64,000 nt of DNA from Bdellovibrionota bacterium. GTDB taxonomy: Bacteria > Bdellovibrionota > UBA1018 > CAIPTA01 > JAALKR01. The notes beneath the pieces were generated by a model. The model saw nothing but the letters and a program-made list of their open reading frames with translations. It was not told where the DNA came from and searched no databases. Position numbers and translations under genes: made by a program. The number at the start of each line of letters is the position of its first letter. Position 1 is the first letter of the stretch. Positions 8,627 to 64,000 of this stretch are shown piece after piece. The stretch is from positions 222,644 to 286,643 of the forward strand of contig CBDBMJ010000001.1 in assembly GCA_965207455.1 (NCBI GenBank), read 5' to 3'.

Positions 8627-8636
8627 GGAGGCATGC

Positions 8637-13644: not shown

Positions 13645-13713
13645 GTATTATTTCGACTTTTCCCAAAAATAAAAGTCGTAAATAGCTGCATATAATAGAT
13701 GTGCTAGTAAAAT

Positions 13714-14623: not shown

Positions 14624-14821
14624 CTAACGGTCTACCTTCTTTTTTGAGAGCCTAGGTGGCAGTGGCCTGCTCTTTTTAAGAGCTGCACGCGTTCTAAGGA
14701 GTATTGTCTGCATATTAAACTTCAGCCATATACGCCGGATGCTCCCATACTGTACATTTAGTTGACACTCTTTCTTTAAATGCAAGAATAATTGCCTTTG
14801 CCCTAGGTAGGGATTCTTCAA
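14624..14821 (-). pseudogene. Transposase-like N-terminal remnant, possibly IS481-type with the HTH at about 14893-15010. Uncertain.
   Basis: 65-aa ORF ...NPYLGQRQLFLHLKKE.QLNVQYGSIRRIWLKFN... lies downstream of the HTH-like segment NVSEAARQSGCSRQTIYNNRK. Together they resemble the N-terminal third of IS481-like transposases, but no catalytic domain follows. Confidence 0.3.
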
Positions 14822-14892
14822 AGAAAAATCAATTACTTTTCTCTCTATGCTCCTTATGCTTTTGGAGGAGTGACTTTTATTGTGATTCTTTT

Positions 14893-15624: not shown

Positions 15625-16006
15625 TGGTTTGCAGGGTAGTTGCCCCTTTAAAATTTAAACTACTCCATGTCTAGCAAGATTTTTACCATGTTTCAATAGC
15701 TTAATTTTTAAAATTCTATTTCATTGGGATTTTTCTCTTTTTTACAAGGGGCGACTTTGGCGGCTCCAGCAAGCTGTAAGGCTTGCGCCGCCAGCCGCCT
15801 GTGGTAGGGAAGCAGTTACTCGTATTTCTCAATATCCCGGGAAAAATTTCCGCAGGAGTGCGCTCCTTACAATATTTATCTTGATTCGTAGGCTCTTTGT
15901 TATAAAAATCCATACACACTTATCCAAGCTATCTCGAAGGGGCTTACTGGCTGCTGGCAAGGTGAAAAACAGGTATAGAAGATGCCTATGTCTTACTTGA
16001 GACTAT

Positions 16007-16942
16007 TTAAGCAGTTTTTAACGGATTTAATGTTACAGCTTCTGACCTATCCCAGTTTCTTGTTTTCCCTGACCAACGATTTGGATTTTTTTGTTTTGCT
16101 CGTTCATATACTGCTCGTCTCTTAGTCAATATCTCAACGTCCTCACCCCTTCTGCGACTCCCTTGAGTTACAAAGTTTATACCACTATGAAAGTGCTCTT
16201 CATTATACCAAGGAATAAATTTCTCCATCCATTCCCCACATCCCTCAATAGACTCAAACGGTTTAGAGGGATAGCTTGGATTATATTTTATCGTCCTAAA
16301 AAGAGATTCGGAATAAGGATTATCATCGCTAACTCTCGGTCTATTAAAGGATGGGACCACTCCAAGTCTTTGGAGTGTGGCAAGCATGGTAGCTCCCTTC
16401 ATTGGCCCTCCATTGTCTGAATGAATAGCAAGCTCTCCTTCCTCTATCTTTTCTTGCTTGCATAAACTCAACATCATTTGACTTGATATTTCATCATTTT
16501 GTTCTGTGCTAACTACATAGCCAACGATACTGCGATCAAAGAGATCCATCACTAGGTACAGATAAAAATACATACCTTTTATATTAGTTCTCAAATATGT
16601 TATGTCCCAACTCCAAACTTCATTTGGACCTGTGGATACAAGCTCTCGAGGATTATTAACCTTACTTCCTTCTTTTTGCTTACCTCTATGGACAAGCATT
16701 CCCTCTTCTTTTAGACAACGGTAAAAAGTAGATTCACTGGCTATATACAATCCATCATCAGCTAATGCAGGTACGATCTGTGATGGAGGTTTATCCTGGA
16801 ACTTTTTACTATTTGCTATTTGAAAAATTCTTTTTCTTTCCTCATCACTTAATTTATTTGCTGGAACACTCTTGGGACCCTTCCTCCTATCTCCAACAGG
16901 GTTTTTATTCCAACGTCTGTAGGTTGTGGGGTCTAGTCCCAT
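16007..16942 (-). CDS. IS3-family transposase OrfB (rve/DDE integrase core), probably made as an OrfAB fusion by -1 frameshift
   Basis: WSWDITYL (D), HSDNGGPMKG (D) and SDDNPYSESLFRTIKY (E, 36 residues after the second D). The orfB frame is open upstream to the A11 tract at 17064-17074. Confidence 0.88.
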   Translation of the reverse strand: MGLDPTTYRRWNKNPVGDRRKGPKSVPANKLSDEERKRIFQIANSKKFQDKPPSQIVPALADDGLYIASESTFYRCLKEEGMLVHRGKQKEGSKVNNPRELVSTGPNEVWSWDITYLRTNIKGMYFYLYLVMDLFDRSIVGYVVSTEQNDEISSQMMLSLCKQEKIEEGELAIHSDNGGPMKGATMLATLQRLGVVPSFNRPRVSDDNPYSESLFRTIKYNPSYPSKPFESIEGCGEWMEKFIPWYNEEHFHSGINFVTQGSRRRGEDVEILTKRRAVYERAKQKNPNRWSGKTRNWDRSEAVTLNPLKTA

Positions 16943-17025
16943 CTGTATGCATGCCCTAAAGAGGCGTGCCCCATTAGAGACAGCCTCTTCAATTTTTTCT
17001 AAATAATTTCTCCTATCTTCTAAAC

Positions 17026-17487
17026 CTATTCGTCTTCCTCGTTGCTGCCCCAGATCAGGTCCATTTTTTTTTTTAGAATCAGCAAGGCACTGGCTTCTGC
17101 AAGAGCTTTATCTTTACGACGAATTTCTTTTTCCAAAGTGTGCACTTTCTTCTTCAACTGACGTTTCTCGGAAGGATCTTCTTTTTCACAAAGCTCATGC
17201 CTCCAGTCCGCTATATCTCGATTGAAGAGTCCGTGCTTGCGCAAATAAGCACCTCTATCTTCCTCAGTAATATTTGCAACCTGTTCAATTGCTGCCAGTT
17301 TTTGTTTTTTACTCCAATGTTTATTTCTTTTTTTCATACTAGGTTCTTTACCACATTCCTTTACCCACTTGGAGAGGGTGGGCTGCGATATGCCTACTTT
17401 AAGACTGAGGGCATGGGCACTGGGACCACTAGGAGATAGCATCTTCTGGATCATCGTTTTTTTTATTTCTTCTGAGTATAGCTTCAT
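17026..17487 (-). CDS. IS3-family transposase OrfA (HTH plus leucine-zipper region)
   Basis: HTH GISQPTLSKWVKE, a coiled-coil region KKKVHTLEKEIRRKDKALAEASALLIL, and an A11 tract (T11 on +, 17064-17074) near the 3' end. Confidence 0.85.
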   Translation of the reverse strand: MKLYSEEIKKTMIQKMLSPSGPSAHALSLKVGISQPTLSKWVKECGKEPSMKKRNKHWSKKQKLAAIEQVANITEEDRGAYLRKHGLFNRDIADWRHELCEKEDPSEKRQLKKKVHTLEKEIRRKDKALAEASALLILKKKMDLIWGSNEEDE

Positions 17488-17552
17488 AATAAAGCCTTTC
17501 TCGCCCCCTATTGTTGATAAAAAAACTACGGAATCATGGCTTTTAAGAAAAA

Positions 17553-18160
17553 TCAGCCGGACTCACGCAGATCGTAAAAAGAGGCAACTTCCCTGAAACA
17601 GGGGGCTTGCAAGCAACCAAAACTTGTTTCTGAAGGAAAGAATTTACCAAAAACCTCTCCATTGGCATCATCAATAGTAGCGATCAAGCAAGACTTAGAA
17701 TCTCCGAACCATCTATGTGTACTACCATCCATCTGCAACATGAGACCAGAGCATGCCATACGCTCTCTTCTTTTTCTAAGTTTAGATCGTCTTTTTTTTT
17801 CATTTTCACATGATGTATCTCATGTGCCCACCTTCGAAGCGTTTCTTTATTTATAAAAACACCCTCATCACTTTTTAGCTTTTCTCTGAGATGAGTTAGA
17901 TTAAAATCAAAATATTTTATTTTAATTAAATCTTCAACTTTAGTTCTTACCGAGTCAGCGGTCTTATTGATAGGAGCGCAACCTCTATTTTTATGCAGTA
18001 AATGCAAGGATCCTTTTTCTTTATGTAATCTTAAATATCGTTCAATAGTTCTTATAGATCTATTTAGAAGTTTTGAGGCATTTGGGATTGTTATTTTACC
18101 ATCACAAACCTTTGAAATTGTATCCATTTTTAATTGATCATAACTTGTTATTCTTATCAT
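17553..18160 (-). pseudogene. IS1202/ISNCY-like transposase, N-terminal half (frameshifted at an A9 tract)
   Basis: ORF 17684-18160 has the HTH region NASKLLNRSIRTIERYLRLHKEKG...YFDFNLTHLREKL. After a frame change at T9 17792-17800, the reading continues KKKRRSKLRKRRERMACSGLMLQMDGSTHRWFGDSKSCLIATIDDANGE, which contains the first catalytic D. Confidence 0.72.
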
Positions 18161-18282
18161 AATACTGCACCCTCCTATTTATTTGTAAAATCAGAAGTAC
18201 AGCTTACGAATGCTATTATGGTGCAGTGCGCCCGTCAAATTCCCTTTGTAGTTATGATACGACAGAATCGCTTTGTGATTAC

Positions 18283-18302
18283 ACTAAAAAATAGACAGTT
18301 GT
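18283..18302. repeat. Right copy of the 20-bp direct repeat flanking the IS1202-like element
   Basis: ACTAAAAAATAGACAGTTGT is identical to 14458-14477. Confidence 0.85.
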
Positions 18303-18356
18303 TGAGGAAGTTTGCGGTAGTTCCTCGAATGAATTTCTAGATATTGTCCGTTATAA

Positions 18357-18390
18357 ATAAAATCCCTTCATTTCTGAAGGGATTTTTTCA
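18357..18390 (-). terminator. Rho-independent (bidirectional-looking) terminator downstream of gene F
   Basis: A perfect 10-bp stem, aatcccttca (18361-18370) paired with tgaagggatt (18375-18384), with loop tttc. A/T runs lie on both sides, 60 nt beyond the gene F stop. Confidence 0.6.
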
Positions 18391-18450
18391 AGCCATATAG
18401 CCTCTAATATAGAATTTTCATTTAGTTTACTGAAAGATCATAAATTATAT

Positions 18451-19728
18451 TTACCGTGAACTAGCTGTTAGGTTGGGACGTATATAAATGAAAATTATTT
18501 TTTTGCTCTTGATCTCCATCTTTAGAGTTGCTAAAGTACTCTTCAATTCTGTTTTTTTCTTCTTATCAGTTTCCATATTTATATTCTCTCGAATACGTTC
18601 CACGAGTTCTTTTTTCTTCTGCATTTCTGCTTCTAGATCTTCTAGAACATTCTCTAATTCTGTTTTAGAGTAATTGGCATCTTCATCAGTAATCAAGTTA
18701 AGATTTTGAAGAATATGGATGTCACGTGCATTCCCAACTGCATAAAAATAAGAGCGACAGCCTATATTAATATAATTTTGAATCATTTTACCTGCTTGTT
18801 TTTGATTTTTATTAGCAGCGCTAGAATGCCTACTTGGCTCAGTTTCTAATGCATCTAATATTGATGCTGCTTTTTTATCATTACATTCTTCACTTATAAA
18901 GCTCAGACTTTTGGATGGACTTTTACCTTGAAGATTACTTATTCTTTCTTTCATATCCTTAAATTCCAACTTGCCCTTTGAGAGCTTCTCTTGATCTGGA
19001 ACAGGATAATAACCATATTGTAGTTCTGGTACTCCATCATCACTATAATCTGGTGTCCATATAAGAAGCCCTATAACTAGCCATTGAGCAAGTCGTCCTG
19101 CCTTCCTCAGTAAACGTCCTGTTAAAGAAGGACGACGTTTTTTAGTAACTTTAGCCATATCAATGGTCTGAGGATTATTTACTTTTATGAATTGACCTGC
19201 TGTTAGTTGAGAAGAAGCCGCAGTAGCAGCAGCAGCTATGCTTGCTTCAGATTTCTTTACTATGTGGCGACCAATAAGAATAAGTCCGAAGCTAGATACT
19301 ACAAAAATAGCAGGTTCATCGTAAGCTTGCCTTATTATGGTTTTTACCACAGGACCTACCCCTATATCGTTTGCTATATAGCCTATATCACTTGCTGTTT
19401 CCGATTCTATTATAGTGTTTGTCACAGAAGTTATCCCTATGCCGTCTACTATACTGACTATACCGTCGCCTATTTCGGATAGGTTGTCTTTTATTCCCCA
19501 TTCTTCAAAATATCTTGCTGCCTTTTTTTTTATTCCTGGTATGTTGTGTGTCTTAAAACCGATACCTAATGTTGGTATTAAAAAAGTTAAAGGTTCGTCT
19601 GTCGAATTTGAAGTTTCCTCTCCATTTGCCCTATCTGTTTCTGTGATCAGTGCCACTGAATATGCATACTGTGGGCTAACCAAAGCTAGGCAAAGTAATA
19701 TGGCTATTATATTTTTTGTTGTTTTCAT
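18451..19728 (-). CDS. Hypothetical secreted/membrane protein with coiled-coil C-terminus (island gene F)
   Basis: Signal peptide MKTTKNIIAILLCLALVSPQYAYS, internal hydrophobic segments and a K/E-rich C-terminal coiled-coil-like region. An A9 tract at 19523-19531 is currently in frame. Confidence 0.65.
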   Translation of the reverse strand: MKTTKNIIAILLCLALVSPQYAYSVALITETDRANGEETSNSTDEPLTFLIPTLGIGFKTHNIPGIKKKAARYFEEWGIKDNLSEIGDGIVSIVDGIGITSVTNTIIESETASDIGYIANDIGVGPVVKTIIRQAYDEPAIFVVSSFGLILIGRHIVKKSEASIAAAATAASSQLTAGQFIKVNNPQTIDMAKVTKKRRPSLTGRLLRKAGRLAQWLVIGLLIWTPDYSDDGVPELQYGYYPVPDQEKLSKGKLEFKDMKERISNLQGKSPSKSLSFISEECNDKKAASILDALETEPSRHSSAANKNQKQAGKMIQNYINIGCRSYFYAVGNARDIHILQNLNLITDEDANYSKTELENVLEDLEAEMQKKKELVERIRENINMETDKKKKTELKSTLATLKMEIKSKKIIFIYIRPNLTASSR

Positions 19729-19773
19729 TTTCTTATCTCCTTGTTAATTGTTATTCTTTACTGCACAAACCGT

Positions 19774-19802
19774 ATTATGCATTAAGTTATATAAATAGTC
19801 AA
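19774..19802 (-). promoter_or_regulatory. Sigma70-type promoter of gene F
   Basis: The - strand reads TTGACT (19802-19797), a 17-nt spacer, then CATAAT (19779-19774). The same ATAATGCTTGACTATT block is found upstream of genes C and D. Confidence 0.65.
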
Positions 19803-19828
19803 GCATTATCTTGAATTTTTTAGTCAAT

Positions 19829-21168
19829 CGAATTGACTCACAAAAAACGTCACCAAAATGGCTTTGAGAACAGTGAGTTACGGCTCGGTTGACTCACAAC
19901 GCAATTCCATGGAAAATATAACTGTAAAATTAACATACCAAGGAGGTACATTATGAACAAACAAGCCATAACACAATATTTACTAGCAATAGCGGAGCTT
20001 TACCGCAATAGCCTTAAGAGAGAAAAAACGAGAATACTGGATGAGGCCGTGAAGGTGTGTCCGCTAAACCGTAAGCAGATCATCAGACGCCTGCAAAAGG
20101 GTCCAGAGAGCATCATAAGGGGAGGGGGTTCTGGGAGGAGATTCCAGTACCCCCGAGGGCTCCTTAAGCCCTATATTCGCAAATTATGGACGAGGATGGG
20201 CTATCCCTGTGCTCTAATCATGCAGGCAAGTATGGAAGAGTGGCTAGAGTATTTGCCTGTTGATATGAACTTTCCCAGCGCTATAAAAAGAAAGCTTTTG
20301 CAGATGAGTGCCTCTACTGTAGGCAGATTTTTAAAAGAAATTAGAGGAGATAGGAATAAAGGAAAAAGCACCACTAGACCTGCTAGTAGTTATCTGAAGA
20401 GCAAGGTTCCCATAAATACATTGGGCTTTCGACCCGAAGAACCAGGATACTTGCAGGCAGATACGGTGTCTCACTGTGGAACAAATGTAGGCGGCTTATA
20501 CGCCTCTACCCTTACCACTACAGACGTATATTCCTCTTGGACAGAGAATAGAGCTATTCTAGGAAAAAGGGCGCATAAGGTTAGTCAGAAATTCTATGAA
20601 ATTCAAAAGGAATTGCCTTTTTTAATAATAGGAATAAATACAGACTCTGGAACAGAGTTTATCAACAATGAAGTGGTAAATTTTATGAATAGCAATGGCA
20701 GGAGAATTAATTTTACTAGGTCCAGGCCTTATCGTAAGAATGACAATTGCTTCGTGGAACAAAAGAACTTTACCCATGTAAGAGAGCTTATGGGCTATGA
20801 GAGGATAGAGGATAAAGCTCACATAGATTTGATGAATGATATTTATATAAATTACTGGAACCCGTTAAAAAACTTTTTTATTCCGTGTTTGAAATTGAAG
20901 GAGAAGTATAGAGAAAAGTCTAGAGTGATAAAAAAGTACCATAAAGCACAAACGCCCTTTAATTGGCTAATGAAATCGGATGCTCTTTCCGAGGAGTATA
21001 AAAGGAGGTTAAGAAAAAGAAAAAAAGAACTCAATCCCTTTGTCCTGAAAAGCGAAATGGACAAAAAACTAGACCAGCTTTTTTTATTATTGCAGCGGTC
21101 TAAGAATGGAAAAGCGGCATGATTTCAACGCGATGCTCCTTGGTGCGTTTTCATTATGAGTCAATACG
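19829..21168 (+). mobile_element. Insertion sequence with a single rve-type DDE transposase (family uncertain)
   Basis: Terminal inverted repeats CGAATTGACTCACAAAAAACGTCACC (19829-19854) and GGTGCGTTTTCATTATGAGTCAATACG (21142-21168). An extra subterminal TTGACTCACAA copy lies near 19890. Confidence 0.6.
19953..21122 (+). CDS. DDE transposase, integrase-core (rve) type
   Basis: LQADTVSHCG (D), INTDSGTEFIN (D) and RKNDNCFVEQKNFTHVR (E, 38 residues after the second D). AAGGAGG RBS upstream. Confidence 0.8.
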   Translation: MNKQAITQYLLAIAELYRNSLKREKTRILDEAVKVCPLNRKQIIRRLQKGPESIIRGGGSGRRFQYPRGLLKPYIRKLWTRMGYPCALIMQASMEEWLEYLPVDMNFPSAIKRKLLQMSASTVGRFLKEIRGDRNKGKSTTRPASSYLKSKVPINTLGFRPEEPGYLQADTVSHCGTNVGGLYASTLTTTDVYSSWTENRAILGKRAHKVSQKFYEIQKELPFLIIGINTDSGTEFINNEVVNFMNSNGRRINFTRSRPYRKNDNCFVEQKNFTHVRELMGYERIEDKAHIDLMNDIYINYWNPLKNFFIPCLKLKEKYREKSRVIKKYHKAQTPFNWLMKSDALSEEYKRRLRKRKKELNPFVLKSEMDKKLDQLFLLLQRSKNGKAA

Positions 21169-21243
21169 AATTATTCATAATCTATTGTTTTTATTAATTT
21201 TTTCCCCTGCTTTGCTCCTCCCTTTAAATGGGGGTTAGAAAGG

Positions 21244-53853: not shown

Positions 53854-54564
53854 CTATAGACTGCTGTTAACTGTCATTGTCATCATTGGTCGATGAAATC
53901 CGCAAAAAATATCCATAGTGCCAGCCTCTTTCACATGAAGCATAAATGTAGAACCGTTATTTAAACTTCTACTTTCCTTGAATGTTAGCTCTGAATTAGG
54001 GTCAGGGCGCACGTTGTGCGGCAAAAATTTATCATTATGTGTGAATTTAATACAGTCGCCAACGTTTACATCTAGCGTATTAGGCATAAACATGGCATCT
54101 TCGAGACTCACTTCGTGTACCGTCCTAGTAAGGCATTCTGCCTCCACTGACTCTAGAGCCTCTGCTTCCTTTGACTCTGGAGTTTCCGGTCCACTCAAAG
54201 TAAGTTGCTGTTCAGTAACTTGAACTGTCATTTCCATATTTCTCCGATGAAATGAGCAAAAAATATTCATGGTGCCAGCCTCTTCAACAGCAAGCATAAA
54301 TGTACTACCGTTATTTAAAGTTTTACTTTTCTCGAACTGTATCTCTGAATCAGATTCAGAGTGCACATTGTGTCGCATTGGATCATTGTTTGTGAAATGA
54401 ATACAGTCACCAACGTTTACATTTAGCTTATTAGGCACAAACTTCCTGTTTTTGAGACTAACTTTGTGTGTAGTAAGGCACTCTGCCTCCACGGATTCTT
54501 GAGCCTGCGACTCACTAGTAAATAGCACTAATGTGCTCAATATAGTTGTTAATAATAGCTTCAT
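53854..54564 (-). CDS. Secreted tandem two-domain cupredoxin (type-1 copper) protein
   Basis: Signal peptide MKLLLTTILSTLVLFTSESQAQE. Two repeats of V..G D.I.F.N.D...HNV ... FC.FHR..M, giving His/Cys/His/Met ligand spacing. Confidence 0.8.
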   Translation of the reverse strand: MKLLLTTILSTLVLFTSESQAQESVEAECLTTHKVSLKNRKFVPNKLNVNVGDCIHFTNNDPMRHNVHSESDSEIQFEKSKTLNNGSTFMLAVEEAGTMNIFCSFHRRNMEMTVQVTEQQLTLSGPETPESKEAEALESVEAECLTRTVHEVSLEDAMFMPNTLDVNVGDCIKFTHNDKFLPHNVRPDPNSELTFKESRSLNNGSTFMLHVKEAGTMDIFCGFHRPMMTMTVNSSL

Positions 54565-54733: not shown

Positions 54734-55747
54734 TTAGGCAGCGGGTAGAAATTCGAGGTTTTCAGTTTCAGCCTTGCGGGAGGCTTCTGATTCTTCCGCT
54801 GGTGCTTCTGTTGATACGACGGTAAGCCCCCCTCGTATCCTTGGATGAAGTTCACAAAAAATATCTATCGTTCCCGCCTCTTCGACTTGAAGAGTGAATT
54901 CGTGACTCGTGTCCAAGGGTTCACTTTTTGTAAACTGTATGGGTGAACTTTCTCTAGGAGCTATAGTATGCGGGACTGGGTCTAGATTTATAAAACGAAT
55001 GCAGTCACCCACATTTACCTCCAGTAAGTCGGGTGAAAATCGGAAGCCCTGAATGATGACTTCATGGCAGGCTTCAGGCTCTTCTATTGGTATTTCTATT
55101 GATGTGACGGTAAGCCCTGGCATTTCTGGATGAAGATTACAAAAAATATCTATCGTTCCTGCCTTTTCGACTTGAAGAGTGAATTCGTCATCGCTCCTCA
55201 AAGGTCTACTTTTTGCAAACTGTACGGGTGAAGTTTCTGTGGGAGCTACAATATGTAGAGTTGGGTCTAGGTTTGTAAAACGAATGCAGTCACCCACAGT
55301 TACATCCAGTGCGGCAGGTGTAAATTGAAAGTCCTGAATTTTGACGTTATGGCAGGTGTCAGGTTCCTCTACTGGTGCTTGTGTTGATGTGACGGTAAGC
55401 CCTGGCATTCTTCGATGAACATCACAAAAAATATCTATCACTCCTATCATTTCGACCTGAAGAGTGAACTCGTTATTTCTCCTCAAACGCTTACTTTTTG
55501 TAAACTGTATCTCTGAACTTTCTCTGGGGGCTACAGTATGTGTGGCTGAATCCATGTTTGTAAAATGAATGCAGTCACCCACGTTAACTTCCAGTTCGGC
55601 AGGTATAAATTTAAAGTTCTGAATTGTTACCTCGTGTGTAGTAAGGCAAGATCCTACGTCTCCTGATATTCGTTGATCTAGAGCTTTCGATTCGTTGCAG
55701 TGAAACAGCACTAATGTGCTCAATATAGTTGTTAATAATAGTTTCAT
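54734..55747 (-). CDS. Secreted tandem three-domain cupredoxin protein
   Basis: Signal peptide MKLLLTTILSTLVLF matches its neighbour. Three repeats of VGDCI[HR]F[TI]N[ML]D...H[TI][VI]AP ... IDIFC..H. Domains 1-2 have C-x2-H-x2-M, and domain 3 has CELHPRI with no Met. Confidence 0.8.
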   Translation of the reverse strand: MKLLLTTILSTLVLFHCNESKALDQRISGDVGSCLTTHEVTIQNFKFIPAELEVNVGDCIHFTNMDSATHTVAPRESSEIQFTKSKRLRRNNEFTLQVEMIGVIDIFCDVHRRMPGLTVTSTQAPVEEPDTCHNVKIQDFQFTPAALDVTVGDCIRFTNLDPTLHIVAPTETSPVQFAKSRPLRSDDEFTLQVEKAGTIDIFCNLHPEMPGLTVTSIEIPIEEPEACHEVIIQGFRFSPDLLEVNVGDCIRFINLDPVPHTIAPRESSPIQFTKSEPLDTSHEFTLQVEEAGTIDIFCELHPRIRGGLTVVSTEAPAEESEASRKAETENLEFLPAA

Positions 55748-55883: not shown

Positions 55884-56498
55884 CTAGCGTTTCAAACATA
55901 ACCAAGCAGGTCCAAATGATCGCCAGTGCGCAAACCAGAGGGGACCATGTTTTGTTGGGCAATTTGAAGAGGAATTAGTATAGACGACTGAGCATGTGTT
56001 GGTACTTCTGACCCAGCCAGTATTTCGATTGCAAGTATAACGGCAACTGCCGCCATAACCAGAGGCACAGGTACCAGTATAAGTAGCAGGAGCAGTAAGT
56101 GATGTGGCGCCGGGTAGGGAGCAATTATTCGTAGTTAGGGCGGAGCAACTAAATCTCTGTATGGAGGTACAATTATTGCGAACTTTCCTAACTTTCCAAC
56201 CATTATTAGGGTCTCCGCTTCTTGCAGAGATAAACGAGCACCTGTAGTTACAAGTACCCGTAGAGCTATGAACGCAAGTGCCATCAGAGGAATAATGATG
56301 CTGTATACGAGGTATGGAGCAATTATTCACAGTTGTAGCATCGCAATACCTCGACCCTATCCTCCCATAGGCAGGGTTAGAGAGTGCGAGGAGGACTAAA
56401 AGAAAGAGGTACCTGAGTAGAGGCAGTCGAGAAAAATCTTTAAATATTTGAAAATAAAGAATATTTCTTCTTTTCTGGCCAAGTAAAAGATGTGCCAT
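55884..56498 (-). CDS. Cys-rich secreted protein with an internal duplication
   Basis: Hydrophobic leader LLRYLFLLVLLALSNPAYG. The C.A.T.NNCS.P...GTC...G.C.Y.C......GW.......NC pattern occurs twice. No family recognised. Confidence 0.55.
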   Translation of the reverse strand: MAHLLLGQKRRNILYFQIFKDFSRLPLLRYLFLLVLLALSNPAYGRIGSRYCDATTVNNCSIPRIQHHYSSDGTCVHSSTGTCNYRCSFISARSGDPNNGWKVRKVRNNCTSIQRFSCSALTTNNCSLPGATSLTAPATYTGTCASGYGGSCRYTCNRNTGWVRSTNTCSVVYTNSSSNCPTKHGPLWFAHWRSFGPAWLCLKR

Positions 56499-56749
56499 AG
56501 GCTTAATGCCTCCTTTCTCTATATTGTATTATAGTGGTCGGGAACTATCAAGATATTTGAGCCTGTTGTTCTCCTTTAAGTACCCTAAAATCAACTCTTA
56601 CAAAACATTGGGCAATAACCCCCGTTTTCAACTCTAACTATCTAATAATAAAGTGGATTTTAATTGACCAAAAAAGTTTTATTTCGTTGGATATTATGAT
56701 AAACTTAAGAAACAGGGTAATAAAAGTCTACAGTTTCAGGGGGTGAATT

Positions 56750-58129
56750 ATGGAGAAAATAAAACAATACACAAAATTATGTTTGCTAGGATCAGTCCTT
56801 TTTTTGGGAGGTGGAACTGCTTTCGGAGAAGGTCTTTCAGTAGCTATTCCCGTGGTATCTTCTAGTGGAGGTGCAGTGAATTGTTTGAGCAAGGATTGTG
56901 AGTGTGTGAAGAATTGTAAGGGGGCATATGCGCCGCCAGAATCAGAGCACTTTGTAGTGACGGTCAATCCTTCTTGCTTTGTAAGAAACTTAAGGAAAAT
57001 TTCAAATCCTTTACAAGGAAATCTTGACTACATAGAGGTTAAATTTAATTTCTTGACAGGGAATAGTTCAAGAAAATATGTCAGCTTAAAAGTTCCACCT
57101 AAGGCGATTCGTTCAGCGGCAGACGGCAGACAGTATACGAATAATTTGGAAGTGAATGAAGGAAATTTTGCTATTGTTACATCAGGCTTGTCAGATGATA
57201 CAAACTTGTTTGCATCGTATAAAAATCAGGTAGCTCGTTATTGGGTTGAGGGTACTAAGGTAAGTCGTGTATCGGGTATAAGCGTTAAACAAGTTTATAG
57301 GCAGGTGACACCTCAATACGTTGCCCCAAGTTATTTTCGGGGAAATAGGCTTTCCTATATTCTATCCGCTGGGCTTGCCCATTCAAGACAGAATACTCCT
57401 GATCCTGAAGTTCGTGTAATAAAATCGGCTCTATCCTTTGATAGTTCTAAATCAAAACAATATTTCAATTCAGGTAAAAATCAATTTAACATAGACTTGG
57501 TAATGCCAGGTTCAAGATCAGGTGGTGGACAGTTTGGTTGCCAAGGATATTATTCTCCTTTGATGTTATTTTTCACAGAGGCACGTCCTAAATTTCGTCA
57601 AATTAGTAAATTTCCTCTTTTTCGAGATCAATCTATTTATTGGCCTGAGGCTAAACATGTGGGATATTTCTTAGTTCGGGATCAAGATAAAAATAATAAA
57701 ATTACAAAAGGCTCCGAGCTTTTTAGGAATCATTTCAATGTTCGTAATGGTTTTGAGGATTTAAAGCGATTGGACTCTAATAAAGATAATAGAATTGATA
57801 AAAGGGATAAGATGTTTTCTCAGCTTAAGCTATGGAAGGATATTAATGGCAATGGAATTGGTGAAAGCAATGAATTAATATCTTTGAGGGATAAGGGCAT
57901 ACAGTGGATATCGCTAAAATACAGAAGTCACTTGAAGAAATTTGGAGATAGAGCTCAGGCTCGGCAGGTGTCGACATTTACTTACATGGATATGGGTGGG
58001 TCCAAAAGGTCTCTAGCAAAAAATCCAACTCAGAAGAAAGATCAGTTGAAGAAGGCAAAGATTGTGGACATTTGGTTTTCTCCAGTGCCTCGAGCCTTGG
58101 CACAAGCATTAATTAACAAGCAGAAATAA
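56750..58129 (+). CDS. Secreted protein with C-terminal EF-hand/dockerin-like calcium-binding loops
   Basis: Signal peptide KLCLLGSVLFLGGGTAFGEG. DSNKDNRIDKRD and DINGNGIGESNE loops occur in the context LVRDQDKNNKITKGSELF...LKLWKDINGNGIGESNELISL...GIQWISL. Confidence 0.65.
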   Translation: MEKIKQYTKLCLLGSVLFLGGGTAFGEGLSVAIPVVSSSGGAVNCLSKDCECVKNCKGAYAPPESEHFVVTVNPSCFVRNLRKISNPLQGNLDYIEVKFNFLTGNSSRKYVSLKVPPKAIRSAADGRQYTNNLEVNEGNFAIVTSGLSDDTNLFASYKNQVARYWVEGTKVSRVSGISVKQVYRQVTPQYVAPSYFRGNRLSYILSAGLAHSRQNTPDPEVRVIKSALSFDSSKSKQYFNSGKNQFNIDLVMPGSRSGGGQFGCQGYYSPLMLFFTEARPKFRQISKFPLFRDQSIYWPEAKHVGYFLVRDQDKNNKITKGSELFRNHFNVRNGFEDLKRLDSNKDNRIDKRDKMFSQLKLWKDINGNGIGESNELISLRDKGIQWISLKYRSHLKKFGDRAQARQVSTFTYMDMGGSKRSLAKNPTQKKDQLKKAKIVDIWFSPVPRALAQALINKQK

Positions 58130-58189
58130 ATCAATGATATGTTGATTCTAACAGGTAGAATCAAGGAATTAAAATTTAATGACAATAGA

Positions 58190-58226
58190 ATCACAAAAGG
58201 TCTTCTTGGTCTTTTGTGATTTTTTC
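58190..58226 (+). terminator. Rho-independent terminator after the Ca-loop protein gene
   Basis: A perfect 10-bp stem, atcacaaaag (58190-58199) paired with cttttgtgat (58211-58220), an 11-nt loop, then TTTTT (58221-58225). Confidence 0.75.
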
Positions 58227-58292
58227 TAGCTTTTAGTCACGCTCTGATGATTTAGGTTGTCTAATTAGAGTAAAGGAAATAAAATTAGTGGA

Positions 58293-61200
58293 ATGAACAG
58301 GATGTTTTTTCGTATCAAGCTGTGGTTGACTGTTTTCAACGCTTCCAACTTTAGTGCGAACGTTGAAAAAAATAAAAAACCATTATTTGAGAATGAAAAA
58401 GGACTGATCTTAATATTAATGTCCATTTTGATTTCGGCTTCTGCCTTCCTCGGTGTTCTTGTTAGTCAGAATTTTTCTTTAGCAAAGGAGTCCCTTAGGA
58501 CAGGAGATGAAGTTGCTCTCATGACAGCTATAGAGGGCTTGAGTGCTACGATTCTTACTGGAATTAAGAGTCGTTGGTGTTTTACTAGAGATCTAGTTCC
58601 AGTTGATTGCAATGATGGAGGCAAGAATGTCCTCAACCATTGGTTTAGCGCTGAACGCTTTTTACTGAAGGATTCTGGTTGGGAGGCGATTAATGAGGCT
58701 CGAAAAAGTCAATGCGAGAGGCTGAGAGCTGGTGGTGTGCCACTGGATAGCTTCGTTTATCCACAAAACCCTAGCTGTAATGAAATTCTGCAAGATCCAA
58801 ATAACCCAGCAAAGATTCCTTTTGACTCCATTGCCATTAAAGATAGAGAAATGGAACTTTCAGAGGAAATGATTAGAGGTTCTGACTTGCTGAGCGATTC
58901 TCTTGGAGGCTTCCTCGATTCTAGGGGTACTCGCCTGAGATTAAAGCCGCCAATGGTGGTCAGAGTGGCGAGAGATGAGAACTACCCTGAACTCGGTGAT
59001 GAGGTTTATATCTCAGTGGAGATAACGGTAACTTTTGAATTAGACAAAAGATCAAAGAAACTCGAATTTAAGCAGGTAGTAGCCTTTTATCCAAGGCAGC
59101 TTACTTCCTTTGGGCTTATTTTGGCTAGAGATTTGTATCTTGGTGGGGAGGAAGTTACATCATCTGCTATAGGAGGCTGCACTCTACCTGGAATTAATGA
59201 GAAATTCCCGTACCTCAGTAATCCGGTAGAAATCGGCAGTATTCCATTTTCTCAATATAATAAGTATAAGGGTTTGAAATTTTTAAGCCCCGTATTTATA
59301 AACGGAAATTTATATGTGAGTGATAAGAAAGATAAAGTGGTGCCAGTGGCATTTCAAAGCTCTGTTGTACTGGGTGGAGGAAGAATAGTTGGTCATACTC
59401 CATCTCTCACCAATGAATCACAAACTAAGATATCTTCCTTAAAACCAGGCATTTTAAATGGTGTGGTACAAGAGGCATCTGATAAGGGTCTAGAGACTTT
59501 TGCTAGACAGAGGGTATGCGTGAACCTTAGTAGCAACCAGCAAGCCTGTATAAATGAAGTTGAAGTGGATCCTCGATATGGGGCTAAAGCAGTAGATGCT
59601 CCTCTCGGAGGAGTAATTTCTATGGCTACTGGATTTGGAGTAAATTGTGCACATTTAGAGGACGGAAGTCTAAAGTGTTGGGGTAATGGTGATCCTAGTT
59701 CTCCCAATTTAATGAGTAATATTAGCTTCAGGAATGTGCGTAAAATTGTATTGGGGGAAAGACATGCTTGTGTGCTTTTCAATGATGATACTACTACTGC
59801 CGCTAATGAGGCAGGTAGTGTAAAATGTTGGGGAGATAACACATCTTATCAATTAGGTCGCGGTGGTGGTGGTGTGAGTGCTCAGTACTCAGTTGAGCCG
59901 AATGGTTTAGGTGTTGTAAGCGAGATTGTAGCGGGAAAATATCATACTTGTGCTATAAAAAATTCTGGCAGTGTAGAATGCTGGGGGCATGGCCGTTATG
60001 GTGAATTGGGTGATAGCCGTGCAAGTTCAAGTGAGCCAGTTGTAGTTTCTGGTTTAACTAGTGTCCGTCAAATTGCTTTAGGATGGGGGCATACTTGTGC
60101 AGTTTCAAATTATGGTAATGTAACATGTTGGGGGTTAAACTATTCTGATCAGTTGGGCGCTACGACTACGGAGACATGTGATGATGCCACTCCTTGTAGT
60201 AAAACACCAGTTGCAGTTTCTGGTTTAACTAATGTTCGTCAAATTGCCTTGGGGGCAGAGCACACCTGTGCGCTTTTAAGCAATAAGAATGTAACATGTT
60301 GGGGGAATAATCAATATGGGCAGTTGGGTGATGGTAGTACAACCAATAGAAGGATACCAGTTGTAGTTTCTGGTTTAAGCAATGTAGAGCAAATTGCCTT
60401 GGGAGCGTTGCACTCCTGTGCACTTTTAAGTAATAAGAGTGTGCAATGCTGGGGAAATGCAGGTAGGCGCCAACTGGGTAATGGTGGCACGACCAATAGA
60501 ACAAGGCCGGTTGCAGTTTCTAGCTTAAGTGATGTAAGTAAAATTTACTTGAGGGAATTTCATAGTTGTGCGCTTTTAAGTGATAAGACTCAAAAATGTT
60601 GGGGAAGTAATGGATCTCAGCAATTAAGCGCTATAGATTCTCCAGAGTGTTCAAATGATGGGACTTCATTTAAATGTATTCCAACGCCAGTTAATTTTTA
60701 CGATGGTTCCACTTATGACATTTATCCCAATGCCACATTTGCAGCAGGAAAAAAACATTCTTGCCTTGTTTTTGAACAAGAGGTTTTGTGTGGAGGAGAT
60801 GCTCAATATGAAGGAAGAAGCTCTATATTGGGCCGGGGTAGTTCTCAGAATATAGGACAAAGTGCAAAGAGGGAGTATACAGCAGCTGGAGGATTGAATA
60901 ATCCTATTTCCACAGCTAGGGGTGTGGATACATATGGAGAGCATAGTTGTGCTTTGATTTATGAATCTGATGATAAGCCTTATGAAGTTAAATGTTGGGG
61001 AAGGGGTGATTCAGGGCAGTTGGGTAATGGTGGTAACTCAGAATCGGAGATTCCTGTATTTGTAGACAACACAAGTGGAGGTAGGCTATCTGTTTATCAA
61101 ATAGCTATAGGAGGAGAGCATACCTGTGCAATTGTTCCAAATACAGGTCAGGGTTCGGTGATGTGTTGGGGAAAGAATGATCGGGGTCAGTTAGGCGATG

Positions 61201-62663
61201 GTACGACAACTAGCCGTCCATTAGCAGTATTTGTACCAATATATAATGTGACAGAAATCAAAGCAGGAGGAAAGCATACCTGTGCATTGACCTATACTGG
61301 AAGGGTATGGTGTTGGGGGAGTAATCAATATGGTCAACTGAGTGCTCGAGTTTTAGGCACAAATGATTTTTATGTACGGCCTATAAATGTTCAAGGACTT
61401 TCTGGAATTAAGGCAATTGCACTAGGGGATGAACACACCTGTGCGCTTTTAAGTAATAAGACTGTAAAATGTTGGGGGAGGAATAATAAAAATCAACTGG
61501 GCAATGGACGTTCCTATGGTAATTTTCCCACTCCTTTTCCAGTGAAAAAGACAGGTGGAGGTTCTCTTACGGGCATAAGCATTTCACCTGGGCGCACTTC
61601 TCTTGTGGCAGGAAGTGCCCATACCTGCGCCTTAACAGAAGTAATAGGGGCAGCTCTATCCTCTGTATATTGCTGGGGTGCTAACGATAGAAAGCAGGTT
61701 GGGCAAGCGAGTGGAGTTAATTTTCCAACAGCTAAACTACTACCAACGGTTTCTGGTACTGATCTTGAAATAGCTGGAGGTCTTTATCATAATTGCTTTC
61801 GAGATGGCTCTAAGGTGAAATGTTGGGGAGATAATACATATAAACAGTTTAGTGCCAGCACTACTGAACCTAATGCTAATAGCAGTGCCAATCCTTTAGG
61901 TCTTTCTCAGTGTGATGAGTCTGGTGAGATAGGTAACGATGGTGCTGTAACCTATGAATCTGTGGGCTGGGGAGTTGACTTTTCTTCTCAGGTCTTTGAT
62001 ATATGGGACTATGTGGAAGAAACTGTGACTCTAGAAGAGGCACGTGTTTTGGTGGAAGGGAGAGTAAATAGCGTTGATGATGATGGAAAGGTGGTTTGCA
62101 ATAACTGTAATGCTACAGCTTATTTTCTCAACGAAGCTGGACGTGCATATGATTTAGGATCAAAATCAATTGCATCAGAATGTGTGGTTTCTAGTAGCAC
62201 TAATTTTGTGGCTGGGCTTTTTATGTGTTATAGATTTATTATTGCAGCTCGAAATACCCCCCTTTCCATTTCAGGAACAGTCATCACCAATGATTTATCG
62301 ATAGATGAAAGCGCATTGAAAGCAGGGATTACATGGTCTAATATTTGGCACCCATTGGCGGTGTATAACTTAAGGAAAACAAAAATATTGAAGAGAGTAG
62401 CGGATCTGGGAAATGGAGAAGAATGTGGTTCTAGAGAAAGCTCCGGCTTTGTGTTGAATGATGTGCCTGGCAGTGCAAGTGTTGAGAATTATAAATCTTG
62501 TAGCTCTTCATCTTTATTAAACGAGGGGGAAAAAGGTGTTAATTTTAAATGGACAGAAGTAGATCCGGACTGTGGTCAACCCCTTGCTAACGGAGCGGAA
62601 AATAAGTGTAAATCTCATAAAAAGAGATATGGGATGAGGCGTATTTTCTCCGTGTTTAAATAA
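58293..62663 (+). CDS. Giant (1456 aa) PilX-N-like anchored protein with about 14 RCC1 (beta-propeller) repeats
   Basis: The N-terminus ENEKGLILILMSILISASAFLGVLV resembles the PilX N-terminal hydrophobic segment. There are 13 CWG.N..GQLG motifs plus one degenerate blade between about 59600 and 61870. The C-terminal ~260 aa are Cys-containing. Confidence 0.8.
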   Translation: MNRMFFRIKLWLTVFNASNFSANVEKNKKPLFENEKGLILILMSILISASAFLGVLVSQNFSLAKESLRTGDEVALMTAIEGLSATILTGIKSRWCFTRDLVPVDCNDGGKNVLNHWFSAERFLLKDSGWEAINEARKSQCERLRAGGVPLDSFVYPQNPSCNEILQDPNNPAKIPFDSIAIKDREMELSEEMIRGSDLLSDSLGGFLDSRGTRLRLKPPMVVRVARDENYPELGDEVYISVEITVTFELDKRSKKLEFKQVVAFYPRQLTSFGLILARDLYLGGEEVTSSAIGGCTLPGINEKFPYLSNPVEIGSIPFSQYNKYKGLKFLSPVFINGNLYVSDKKDKVVPVAFQSSVVLGGGRIVGHTPSLTNESQTKISSLKPGILNGVVQEASDKGLETFARQRVCVNLSSNQQACINEVEVDPRYGAKAVDAPLGGVISMATGFGVNCAHLEDGSLKCWGNGDPSSPNLMSNISFRNVRKIVLGERHACVLFNDDTTTAANEAGSVKCWGDNTSYQLGRGGGGVSAQYSVEPNGLGVVSEIVAGKYHTCAIKNSGSVECWGHGRYGELGDSRASSSEPVVVSGLTSVRQIALGWGHTCAVSNYGNVTCWGLNYSDQLGATTTETCDDATPCSKTPVAVSGLTNVRQIALGAEHTCALLSNKNVTCWGNNQYGQLGDGSTTNRRIPVVVSGLSNVEQIALGALHSCALLSNKSVQCWGNAGRRQLGNGGTTNRTRPVAVSSLSDVSKIYLREFHSCALLSDKTQKCWGSNGSQQLSAIDSPECSNDGTSFKCIPTPVNFYDGSTYDIYPNATFAAGKKHSCLVFEQEVLCGGDAQYEGRSSILGRGSSQNIGQSAKREYTAAGGLNNPISTARGVDTYGEHSCALIYESDDKPYEVKCWGRGDSGQLGNGGNSESEIPVFVDNTSGGRLSVYQIAIGGEHTCAIVPNTGQGSVMCWGKNDRGQLGDGTTTSRPLAVFVPIYNVTEIKAGGKHTCALTYTGRVWCWGSNQYGQLSARVLGTNDFYVRPINVQGLSGIKAIALGDEHTCALLSNKTVKCWGRNNKNQLGNGRSYGNFPTPFPVKKTGGGSLTGISISPGRTSLVAGSAHTCALTEVIGAALSSVYCWGANDRKQVGQASGVNFPTAKLLPTVSGTDLEIAGGLYHNCFRDGSKVKCWGDNTYKQFSASTTEPNANSSANPLGLSQCDESGEIGNDGAVTYESVGWGVDFSSQVFDIWDYVEETVTLEEARVLVEGRVNSVDDDGKVVCNNCNATAYFLNEAGRAYDLGSKSIASECVVSSSTNFVAGLFMCYRFIIAARNTPLSISGTVITNDLSIDESALKAGITWSNIWHPLAVYNLRKTKILKRVADLGNGEECGSRESSGFVLNDVPGSASVENYKSCSSSSLLNEGEKGVNFKWTEVDPDCGQPLANGAENKCKSHKKRYGMRRIFSVFK

Positions 62664-62688: not shown

Positions 62689-63276
62689 ATGAGAAAGTAT
62701 AATATTTTGAAGATTGTTAAAAAAAATGATGGCTTTACTTTAATTGAGGTCATGATAGCTTTTGTTATTCTAATAGCTTCGTTCTTTATTATTGAAAATG
62801 CTTTTCTACAACAGAAAAAATTTGTATTTCAGGTGGAAGGTTCTATTAATCGAAGTCTTGCATTTTCTGAAATTTTTCAAGGATTACAGGCAAATCTTTT
62901 AAGATATAATAAACATGATTATGATAGTGAATCCTTAATTAAGTGTCTCCAGCCGGATGGGGGGTTGAGAAAAGAACTTACTAAAGATATGAGAAAGTAT
63001 TTTTATGAGATCTCTCGTAATGGCACAAGCGATAATTTTAGCGATTTATATAATTGCTTTCAGATGGCCCTTTCTATTAAAGGGCTTACTTCTGTGATGA
63101 AATGTTCAGATTGCTCCGAGAGAGTGGGGATGATGATTGATCCGTATTATGTTGGTGGAAAACTTATTGAGGGAGTGTATAATGTACGTATTCTGTCCAT
63201 AAAAAAAATTAAAGGTGCAACTGGAGTAGGGACATATAAAGTAGGGAATTATTATAAGATGATTCTAGGGGGTTAA
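62689..63276 (+). CDS. Prepilin-type N-terminal cleavage/methylation domain protein (minor pilin/pseudopilin)
   Basis: MRKYNILKIVKKNDG|FTLIEVMIAFVILIASFF has the canonical G-F-T-L-I-E motif with a hydrophobic helix. Confidence 0.82.
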   Translation: MRKYNILKIVKKNDGFTLIEVMIAFVILIASFFIIENAFLQQKKFVFQVEGSINRSLAFSEIFQGLQANLLRYNKHDYDSESLIKCLQPDGGLRKELTKDMRKYFYEISRNGTSDNFSDLYNCFQMALSIKGLTSVMKCSDCSERVGMMIDPYYVGGKLIEGVYNVRILSIKKIKGATGVGTYKVGNYYKMILGG

Positions 63277-63279: not shown

Positions 63280-64000
63280 TTGACTAGTCAGAATACAAAA
63301 CAAGCAGGCTTTACAATGGTAGAAATGATGGTGACAGCAGGATTGTTGGCATTATTCGTATTTTTTTCCTATGACATAATAACAAAAATGAATCAGAAAA
63401 GTATTAATCTGTCTTCTGAGCAGAAAAATTTGCTAGACACTGCCATCGCTTATAGAGTGCTGAATAAAGAATTAAAAAAAACCTATGTATCATTCTCTAA
63501 TATGTTAAGTCTTACAGATGAATTTAGGATTAGGAGGCGAGGTGCTAAATATTTTTTTGAATATTCTCAATCTGGAATGGAAAATGTGCTCCTTACTATC
63601 ACTTTAAGTAAGATTAAAAGAGCAGTTGTTTTTTTAAAGACTGGTCTTTTAGGTGAGGGAGTGCGTGGCGCAAGCATTGCTCCCTTTGAGCTTTTAGGAG
63701 TTAATTTTTTAAGAGAACGGTTGACGAGTGGTGGTTGCGATCCTAATGATATTAATACCAACTATAATTCTAACTGTGAATCGAAGGAGTACTCTCTAGA
63801 AAGATTTAAAGAAGCGGTTGAAGCAGCGGGGTGGTTGCAGGAAGAACAGCTTTTTTTGCTTTATTCGCCCATATGGCTAACCGTAACAGACAGGAATTTG
63901 AAGAAAAAAATAAAAACTCCTGCTGTTCTTTTGCAATACACTGGAGGCAAGTTTAAAAAATATGGTACCCCTGAAATTTCATTTGATTTTAGCATTCCTG
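63280..64000 (+). CDS. Second prepilin-type N-terminal domain protein (3' end off the window; not in the ORF track)
   Basis: Manual translation from TTG 63280 gives MTSQNTKQAG|FTMVEMMVTAGLLALFVFF... The frame stays open to position 64000. Confidence 0.7.
   Translation, partial: MTSQNTKQAGFTMVEMMVTAGLLALFVFFSYDIITKMNQKSINLSSEQKNLLDTAIAYRVLNKELKKTYVSFSNMLSLTDEFRIRRRGAKYFFEYSQSGMENVLLTITLSKIKRAVVFLKTGLLGEGVRGASIAPFELLGVNFLRERLTSGGCDPNDINTNYNSNCESKEYSLERFKEAVEAAGWLQEEQLFLLYSPIWLTVTDRNLKKKIKTPAVLLQYTGGKFKKYGTPEISFDFSIP

Follow-up and report, generated by a model that had tools for sequence, protein, structure and literature searches.

Genes and features of the locus

We analysed a 64-kb stretch of DNA, here called the window, from a bacterium that, judging from its proteins, is an uncultured member of the Bdellovibrionota, a phylum made up mainly of predators. 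The last part of the window carries a cassette of four genes on the plus strand, in which a secreted partner protein precedes a giant protein of 1456 amino acids (aa) and two prepilins follow it. An earlier note on this DNA had described the giant protein as a PilX_N-anchored protein with a double RCC1 propeller and as a possible tip protein of a type IV pilus or pseudopilus. The open reading frame (ORF) given there, 58293-62663 with 1456 codons for amino acids, is confirmed and begins with ATG. The features of the cassette in the window are as follows.

56750-58129, plus strand: cassette partner, 459 aa, with a Sec-type signal peptide, a variable N-terminal region and an SPM-like Ca2+-binding domain
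57557-58084, plus strand: SPM-like domain of the partner, aa ~270-445, beginning at the invariant Ser269-Pro270 (phmmer against the PDB, alignment A6)
58293-62663, plus strand: giant cassette gene, 1456 aa, ATG start, with leader, pilin-like alpha1, N-module, double RCC1 insert and C-module
58293-58403, plus strand: polar/basic leader of the giant protein, aa 1-37; its last residue, the invariant Gly37, is the putative prepilin-peptidase site
58404-58568, plus strand: hydrophobic alpha1-N, aa 38-58, with the predicted helix continuous to aa 92 and Leu at +5 (hydropathy, AlphaFold2 (AF2))
58293-59582, plus strand: conserved N-module, aa 1-~430 (phmmer, alignments A1 and A3)
59625-60767, plus strand: predicted RCC1 propeller 1, blades 1-7, CWG motifs at Cys 462-769 (Pfam, motifs, PDB)
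60768-61862, plus strand: predicted RCC1 propeller 2, blades 8-14, C[W/G]G motifs at Cys 833-1177 (Pfam, motifs, PDB)
61860-62660, plus strand: conserved Cys-rich C-module, aa ~1190-1456 (alignment A5 of 25 sequences, AF2)
62689-63276, plus strand: small prepilin-type minor pilin, 195 aa, NDG/FTLIEV, the slash standing after the Gly (N_methyl E=4.7e-6; TIGR02532 18.1 bits, cut-off 16.3)
63280-64000, plus strand: larger prepilin-type minor pilin, TTG start, at least 240 aa to the end of the window, QAG/FTMVEM (N_methyl E=3.1e-5)

A pilin-like N-terminus without Glu5

According to its hydropathy, the giant protein possesses one hydrophobic segment only, aa 37-58, which follows ...ENEKG and has the sequence LILILMSILISASAFLGVLVS. 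Residue +5 after Gly37 is Leu, and the protein therefore has no Glu5. Gly37 is invariant in 29 of 29 aligned relatives, which share 20-28% identity, and it is the sole invariant position in the first ~95 columns of the alignment. The N-termini of the family consist of a polar/basic leader of 3-53 aa, [R/K/S/Q]-Gly and ~20 hydrophobic residues, and never have Glu at +5. This pattern holds for practically every member whose N-terminus is intact; the exceptions are truncated gene calls or cases in which the heuristic chose the wrong Gly. In the giant protein itself, the leader would be 26 aa long if translation began at an alternative in-frame TTG, codon 12. A cleavage motif of the signal-peptidase-I type was not found when the sequence after the hydrophobic segment was read.

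The AF2 model of the N-module (pLDDT 69 for the whole model) contains an uninterrupted helix of 58 residues (aa 35-92, pLDDT 70-90), after which come a sheet of three strands (215-265) and some short strands of a solenoid-like kind. A profile search of the PDB with the N-module matched only two Geobacter type IV pilins of the PilA-N kind, in leader and helix, and weakly (E=0.04-0.07). When E. coli GspK was aligned to the N-module by hhalign, NEQRG/VALLIVL of GspK stood in register with ENEKG/LILILMS within the N-terminal 58 columns, at a probability of 1.9% (alignment A3).

Absence of Glu5 is a known signature of cap subunits of the GspK/PilX type. As read from the sequence, the N-terminus of the giant protein is laid out like class III (prepilin peptidase) sites of the GspK/PilX type, and its hydrophobic segment does not look like an ordinary signal anchor. 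A Glu5-less pilin-like N-terminus is supported by conservation and by the predicted secondary structure.

Two conserved modules and an exchangeable middle

Relatives of the giant protein were collected by an exhaustive phmmer search with aa 1-440 against 1.84 billion cluster representatives, by which the taxonomic range of the family was sampled only. The search found 82 related cluster representatives. In public databases all of the members are named 'hypothetical protein'. A word-indexed homolog search with the N-terminal 440 aa or with a profile of 29 sequences gave nothing significant among 8000 candidates, a search of genome contigs with the N-module found no relative, and the scan of metagenomes made use of a narrow alignment of the family.

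Family members are typically ~800-1000 aa long and are built from two conserved modules. The N-module is characterised by the motifs GIKxRWCF (with invariant C96 and C106), YPRE/Q-L, FxSPVF(V/I)NGN and DxGL...C419; it has no family match in Pfam, NCBIfam or the PDB. The C-module contains FVxGFxxC, PLxIIGTxI (PL.I.GT.I), GIxWSxIY (GI.WS.I) and W(T)xVDPDCG...CK. Among its cysteines, C1207, C1297, C1312, C1378 and C1403 are invariant in the 25 aligned sequences and C1427 and C1439 are nearly so. Its AF2 model has a pLDDT of 64 as a whole and of about 90 in a core (aa ~1294-1365) that contains a long beta-hairpin. These last ~267 aa gave no match in Pfam, in NCBIfam, in PDB profiles or among PDB folds; the non-significant Foldseek matches, which with E>1 are not evidence, include the ComZ beta-solenoid and tapirins. 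The earlier note had seen in the last ~260 residues a Cys-containing domain of unknown type. Cysteines and the lack of a Pfam or NCBIfam match are borne out, and the region turns out to be the conserved C-module of the family of 82 clusters. No family-specific model was found for any of the cassette proteins in a search of NCBIfam.

Between the modules lies a poorly conserved middle; the distance from SPVF to PLxIIGT has a median of 527 aa. RCC1 repeats are present in eight of 52 scanned relatives, exclusively the closest ones of the giant protein, among them P0004 (1684 aa), P0005 (1209 aa), P0007 (1494 aa) and P0008 (1503 aa), and the number of blades differs between them. Since the N- and C-modules are shared throughout the family and RCC1 is restricted to the nearest relatives, the double propeller, by the alignments, has been inserted or swapped into the variable region between the two conserved modules of a scaffold, and is not a C-terminal fusion to a PilX anchor.

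The invariant cysteines of both modules suggest disulfides and hence an oxidising, extracytoplasmic location. Cysteines also flank the RCC1 insert, namely C409 and C419 (nucleotides 59517-59549) on one side and C1207 (nucleotides 61911-61913) on the other, C419 and C1207 being invariant. A disulfide at the base of the insert is conceivable from these positions. An argument from cysteine parity for a C419-C1207 bond was dropped, because the extra C409 of the RCC1 subclade could pair with C419 instead.

Two predicted RCC1 propellers

Pfam detects in the 1456-aa protein WD40_RLD (E=1.3e-176, four stretches), RCC1_2 (E=1.1e-83, 11 stretches) and RCC1 (E=6.4e-75, nine stretches), and the RCC1/RCC1_2 search that the earlier note had proposed as a check thus gave strong matches. 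The best WD40_RLD stretch, aa 471-824, covers positions 22-362 of the 363 positions of the profile. There are 14 C[W/G]G blade motifs, the first seven with their Cys at 462, 512, 563, 612, 669, 719 and 769 and the second seven at 833, 901, 958, 1007, 1060, 1127 and 1177. About 12 of the blades are canonical and two (Cys 462 and 833) are degenerate, where the earlier note had counted 13 clear motifs and one degenerate blade. The top sequence matches in the PDB are seven-bladed propellers, i.e. UVR8 (1e-48), the RCC1-like domains of HERC1/2, and RCC1, each of which matches in two separate stretches. Two predicted seven-bladed propellers, as already proposed in the earlier note, are for this reason the most economical reading.

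Companion prepilins and conservation of the cassette

The presence of at least two prepilin-type genes directly downstream of the giant gene had been noted before and is substantiated by the N_methyl matches given above. By their sequences the two are genuine prepilins whose head domains are unassignable. In hhalign comparisons with E. coli GspG/H/I/J/K and PpdA/B/C, both companion families match in the class III signal and alpha1-N only, the probabilities being 60-93% for GspG/H/I/J and PpdA/B/C. The best match of the larger prepilin is GspJ, with a probability of 92.7% over the N-terminal 30 residues only. An assignment of the companions to the I, J, V or W type was attempted and is not possible, the matches being limited to the class III signal region. 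TadE/Tad hidden Markov models (HMMs) did not match the companion pilins.

The arrangement of the genes was compared at six related loci (handles beginning with L; lengths are those of the encoded proteins).

L078: giant protein 850 aa; small prepilin 150 aa; larger prepilin 336 aa; EF-hand partner 417 aa, downstream
L079: giant protein 1061 aa; small prepilin 161 aa; larger prepilin 365 aa; partner upstream, then a strand switch
L081: giant protein 1411 aa without RCC1; small prepilin 157 aa; larger prepilin 426 aa; partner 640 aa, downstream
L082: giant protein 1494 aa (P0007) with RCC1; small prepilin 171 aa; larger prepilin 323 aa; partner 456 aa; then a PilA-like pilin of 208 aa
L083: giant protein 1684 aa with RCC1; small prepilin 178 aa (N_methyl); the contig ends before the larger prepilin, and the partner was not seen
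L086: fragmented RCC1 gene; N_methyl ORF; 326-aa ORF; partner upstream

The cassette of giant gene, small prepilin, larger prepilin and partner is conserved in six of six informative related loci, L083 being incomplete at the contig end. Linkage to pilin genes in relatives, the lack of which the earlier note had named beforehand as refuting its proposal, thus held throughout. Orthologs of the small prepilin (150-178 aa) stand directly after the large gene in L078, L079, L081, L082 and L083 and share the C-terminal motif C..C..R.G..I.P. Orthologs of the larger prepilin (323-426 aa) are present in L078, L079, L081 and L082.

Some loci show additional features. Directly after the cassette of L082, positions 17627-18253 encode the PilA-like pilin of 208 aa (KG/FSLIELL, N_methyl E=3.6e-7). 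L083 (10001-15604) and L086 (7710-15766) are located on the same 879-kb contig with their cassettes about 380 kb apart, so a single genome can hold two cassettes. The large RCC1 gene of L086 is broken into ORFs of 603 aa and 211 aa, and may be a pseudogene or the result of an assembly frameshift. A scan of 56300-58400 in the window for promoters and terminators gave nothing above chance.

The assignment of the host was drawn from conserved proteins. EF-Tu of L082 is 76% identical to that of the window, and tuf is located just upstream of the cassette at both loci. RpoB of the window has 68-77% identity to proteins that bear the names Bdellovibrionota, Bacteriovoracia, Oligoflexia or Bdellovibrionales bacterium, and one of these belongs to the metagenome-assembled genome RJB38, in which the family member P0024 is encoded as well. 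Relatives of window proteins with >90% identity were not found. A search of genome contigs with NusG gave only 'delta-proteobacterial' and Omnitrophota matches of 40-60% identity, and no close genome and no synteny.

The partner protein and its SPM-like domain

The window partner is an ortholog of the partner at L082 (16158-17528; 30% identity, E=9e-47). Against the PDB, phmmer aligned aa 307-412 of the window partner with chain residues 44-155 of the SPM of FrpC (6SJW/6SJX) at E=2.7e-14, and a profile of six partners matched the same entries at E=5.2e-28. This homology explains the tag PF26745:SPM that is precomputed on the partners of L082 and L086. In our Pfam scan the window partner had no match, and PF26745 was not reported there; a literature search on PF26745 found no description.

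The SPM of FrpC folds upon binding of Ca2+ and cleaves the Asp414-Pro415 bond by way of an Asp anhydride (PMC7078468). The anhydride can be linked to lysine by an isopeptide bond ('clip-and-link'), and the site has the sequence D414-P415-LALDLDGDG (PMC7078468). The partners retain three EF-hand-like loops as well as equivalents of W451 and W519 (W298 and W362 in the window) and of D579 (D440). Columns that are invariant in the six partners are M272, F274, F275, R279, P280, W298, D311, W362, D440 and W442. At the place of the scissile Asp414-Pro415 of FrpC, six of six partners have Ser-Pro (..YYS-PLM(V/L)FF..), an equivalence deduced from spacing and the P-L-x-(L/V) motif, as the HMM alignment omits the N-terminal 25-40 residues of SPM. 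The half-EF-hand residues D419/D421/D423 of FrpC are replaced by hydrophobic residues. RTX repeat HMMs did not match the partners, and there is no type I secretion system (T1SS) context.

With Ser-Pro in place of Asp-Pro, the canonical Asp-anhydride chemistry cannot be assumed for the partner. For the SPM-derived domain it is safer to infer a folding switch triggered by calcium.

The partner gene of L079 (3748-4916) is split into ORFs of 192 aa and 175 aa. As CGGYYSPLMVFF runs upstream of the ATG of the second ORF in the same frame, the split is a frameshift before the SPM-like domain; it is either real or a sequencing error.

A candidate cap subunit of a type IV filament

We propose that the giant protein is a Glu5-less, pilin-like cap subunit in the complex of minor pilins at the tip of a type IV filament of an uncultured Bdellovibrionota bacterium. 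This is the reading that we favour, if only slightly. Its parts differ in strength. An association with a type IV filament is likely, a location at the filament tip stands about even, and a specific function in attaching to prey or hosts is tentative and rated clearly lower.

According to this proposal, a prepilin peptidase would remove the leader at Gly37. The variable length of the leader (3-53 aa) fits a cleaved leader and counts in favour. By analogy with known tip complexes, alpha1 of the giant protein would bundle with alpha1 of the two Glu5-bearing companion prepilins, and the bundle of three pilins would prime assembly of the filament and finish at its distal tip. The giant subunit would be placed on top, like GspK on GspI-J and PilX on PilV-W, and a top-most position would require no Glu5. 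The conserved N- and C-modules may form the scaffold. RCC1 propellers are versatile, generic protein- and glycan-binding modules, and the exchangeable middle, here the double propeller, would be the exposed ligand-binding part, its ligand probably being a protein or glycan on the surface of the target or prey. The secreted SPM-like partner would probably serve the tip as a switch responding to extracellular calcium or as an accessory factor.

Several results weigh against the proposal. HMMs for PilX_N (PF14341), T2SSK (PF03934), N_methyl (PF07963/TIGR02532) and TadE match neither the full 1456-aa protein (E<=0.1) nor its first 142 or 440 aa (E<=10), nor any of 52 full-length relatives (E<=0.01) or 29 isolated N-modules (E<=10), the PilX_N negatives lacking a positive control. 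The hhalign comparisons of the N-module are not significant for GspK and give nothing meaningful for E. coli YgdB. Foldseek searches of the PDB with the AF2 models of the N- and C-modules returned no match with E<0.1, and no GspK structure. With models of moderate quality (pLDDT 69 and 64) a pilin head fold is not demonstrated. At 37 aa, the leader of the giant protein up to Gly37 is unusually long, and it includes a hydrophobic patch, FFRIKLWLTVF. Finally, genes for a pilus motor, secretin or prepilin peptidase are present neither in the 64-kb window nor beside the related cassettes.

Membership of the giant protein in the PilX_N or GspK family is accordingly not supported by these comparisons. 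In the PilX_N-type anchor of the earlier note, the missing Glu5 and the pilin-like succession of Gly and helix stand, and the PilX_N label fails, its HMM matching nowhere; the idea of a cap-pilin-like tip protein survives with support from the conserved context. The note had also held that an ordinary signal anchor without similarity to PilX_N would speak against it. Similarity to PilX_N was not found, but the invariant Gly argues against an ordinary anchor.

The same negative results serve an alternative in which the giant protein keeps its signal anchor uncleaved (as a type II membrane protein) or is otherwise exported to the surface or periplasm and, itself no subunit of the filament, docks on the minor pilins as an accessory or primer similar to PilY1. 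The authors of the TM7x study raise this very option for PilX1 and PilX2, which are without predicted PilD signals (PMC11623550). The lack of a class III signal or PilX_N HMM match, the lack of Glu5 and the non-significant fold and profile comparisons with GspK all agree with it. We nevertheless consider it unlikely, since an invariant Gly exactly at the border of leader and helix and a leader of variable length are not features of Sec anchors, and since the predicted helix of 58 residues far exceeds a membrane span and equals pilin alpha1 in length. Moreover, the Glu5-less state is established as a mark of GspK/PilX-type cap subunits.

In a second alternative the products of the cassette make up the tip of a non-extended pseudopilus like that of type II secretion systems (T2SSs), and the giant subunit serves recognition or secretion of substrates, not adhesion. 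The giant protein is indeed GspK-like in being the largest, in lacking Glu5 and in being co-encoded with two smaller pseudopilins, and the N-terminus of the larger prepilin scores best against GspJ. However, gspG/H or T2SS machinery genes are not adjacent at any cassette locus, and in L082 a PilA-like pilin adjoins the cassette. A double propeller of 750 aa together with a C-module of ~270 aa would make a periplasmic piston that enters a secretin very bulky. The middle domain is swapped among family members, a pattern typical of adhesins. All this makes a pseudopilus quite improbable.

That the neighbourhood is coincidental and the giant protein a free secreted RCC1 effector or inhibitor (of the BLIP-II type or like the RCC1 proteins of Legionella) with an ordinary signal sequence is hardly credible, for although RCC1 propellers bind proteins generically and the RCC1 region itself has no pilus-specific features, the linkage to two prepilin genes and an SPM-like gene extends over six of six informative loci, including members without RCC1, and the hydrophobic segment is not followed by a signal-peptidase-I-type motif.

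The cap-subunit proposal can be carried further. The cassette might be a 'harpoon tip' of Bdellovibrionota type IV pili, in which the exchangeable domain would provide recognition, a calcium-sensing SPM module would lock the tip or fix it covalently, to itself or to the prey, and paralogous cassettes that differ in their middle domains would set the range of prey or hosts. The SPM-derived module would then respond to the steep rise in calcium on leaving the cell, and locking or fixation would proceed by a variant Ser-Pro chemistry or by a calcium-driven conformational switch. We regard this extension as speculative and rather improbable.

Comparison with known systems

GspK of the T2SS and PilX of the type IVa pilus resemble the giant protein in several respects. 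It is the largest of its minor-pilin set, its leader ends in Gly and is followed by alpha1 without Glu5, its gene is co-encoded with smaller Glu5-bearing prepilins, and the extra domain is probably inserted in or appended to a pilin-like scaffold. It differs in that sequence or profile membership is lacking (HMMs negative; hhalign 1.9%) and in being 3-5 times larger. The cassette also differs in having a Cys-rich C-module, two companion prepilins rather than three or four, and no adjacent machinery.

PilX2 of the Saccharibacteria TM7x is a studied minor-pilin-like protein with a seven-bladed RCC1 propeller and without a predicted PilD signal (PMC11623550). Its propeller resembles lectins of the PLL type, and deletion of pilX2 halves host binding (PMC11623550). 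A hydrophobic N-terminal helix, an RCC1 propeller and co-encoded minor pilins are found in both systems, and PilX2 is implicated in binding to another bacterium. The comparison made here is one of architecture: PilX2 has one C-terminal propeller, whereas two are inserted between the N- and C-modules here. TM7x belongs to the monoderm-like candidate phyla radiation, in contrast to the diderm Bdellovibrionota, and an SPM-like partner is unreported for PilX2.

In the modular pilins, such as S. sanguinis PilB/PilC, CofB of enterotoxigenic E. coli and T. thermophilus ComZ, a module is grafted or inserted for display at the tip (PMC8179133). Dataset S1 of the same paper lists several N_methyl+RCC1 architectures (PMC8179133). 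Their canonical class III signal is detectable as IPR012902, a signature which the family of the giant protein escapes, and which is why the family is not captured by surveys of modular pilins. A pilin with an RCC1 propeller is thus already known, as N_methyl+RCC1 proteins have been listed (PMC8179133) and TM7x PilX2 has been studied (PMC11623550), and the statement in the earlier note that an anchor fused to RCC1 propellers matches no described system does not hold.

The Tips KilL/M/N of the Kil Tad pilus of Myxococcus xanthus are encoded by cassettes in which a small pilin is joined by an extended and a large one, the large one having a variable distal domain that forms the extremity of the pilus (PMC12075869). 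They have many predicted disulfides, a genome carries several paralogous cassettes of them, and they are enriched in predators including Bdellovibrio (PMC12075869). A multi-pilin cassette with a large variable member, richness in cysteine and paralogous copies in one genome are common to both systems. The Kil Tips are of the TadE/F/G type, whereas the companions here are of the N_methyl type (T4a/T2SS-type G/FTLIE); a sequence relation is lacking, and the SPM-like partner is additional.

PilY1/PilC is likewise a large, non-canonical, calcium-regulated and tip-associated protein with a seven-bladed beta-propeller and co-encoded minor pilins. Its propeller is PilC/PQQ-like (IPR008707) and not RCC1, and it has no pilin-like alpha1. 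The propeller domain (Neisseria_PilC, IPR008707) had no Pfam match in the giant protein or in 52 relatives. The calcium site of PilY1 is located in the same protein, whereas the calcium-binding module of the cassette is on a separate one. As to this module, the partner keeps the SPM core of FrpC/ApxIVA (EF-hand-like loops and the equivalents of the W451/W519 pair and D579) and differs by Ser-Pro, by the missing half-EF-hand, by the absence of RTX and T1SS and by a Sec-type signal peptide.

What appears new is the family of N- and C-modules that is invisible to pilin HMMs, the insertion of two propellers and the conserved coupling to an SPM-derived protein. No description of any of the three was found in the searchable literature, which is itself incomplete.

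Other features of the window

Positions 1-10019 hold a canonical dcw cluster (mraY fragment, murD, ftsW, murG, murC, murB, ftsQ, ftsA, ftsZ). An island of low GC content (34-39% vs 42-47% elsewhere) with several ORFs without family match extends over 10000-21200. It contains an IS3-type transposase pair, 17026-17487 (HTH_Tnp_1) and 16007-16942 (rve), and a weak rve-like ORF at 19953-21122. Situated between the dcw cluster and ribosomal operons, the island is probably mobile or horizontally acquired DNA.

On the minus strand, two adjacent genes (53854-54564 and 54734-55747) encode secreted proteins with two and three tandem cupredoxin/plastocyanin-like repeats, respectively. The repeats have the motif VNVGDCI.FTN.D..H..., Cupredoxin_1 matches the first protein at E=1e-17, and the signal peptides are nearly identical. 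A Cys-rich ORF of 204 aa at 55884-56498, also on the minus strand and divergent from the cassette, has an internal repeat (...NNCS.P...TGTC..G..G.C.Y.C...) and no match in Pfam or NCBIfam.

Significance

The giant protein belongs to a family of probable cap pilins that the HMMs used in surveys, N_methyl and PilX_N, do not see, and the diversity of modular tip pilins is on this account underestimated. The cassette offers a display protein with a swapped middle, two companion pilins and a partner with a putative calcium switch related to the domain of a protein-ligation tool (NeissLock). If it is true that the SPM-like partner processes itself at Ser-Pro, the known chemistry of SPM would be extended.

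Cultivated Bdellovibrio-like species need type IV pili for invasion, and the components of the pilus tips are poorly defined. Recognition of the target and attachment to it by Bdellovibrio-like bacteria are only partly understood. With the function that we infer for it, the cassette would be a candidate, open to experiment, for the means by which pili recognise their targets in a predatory phylum that has been little studied.

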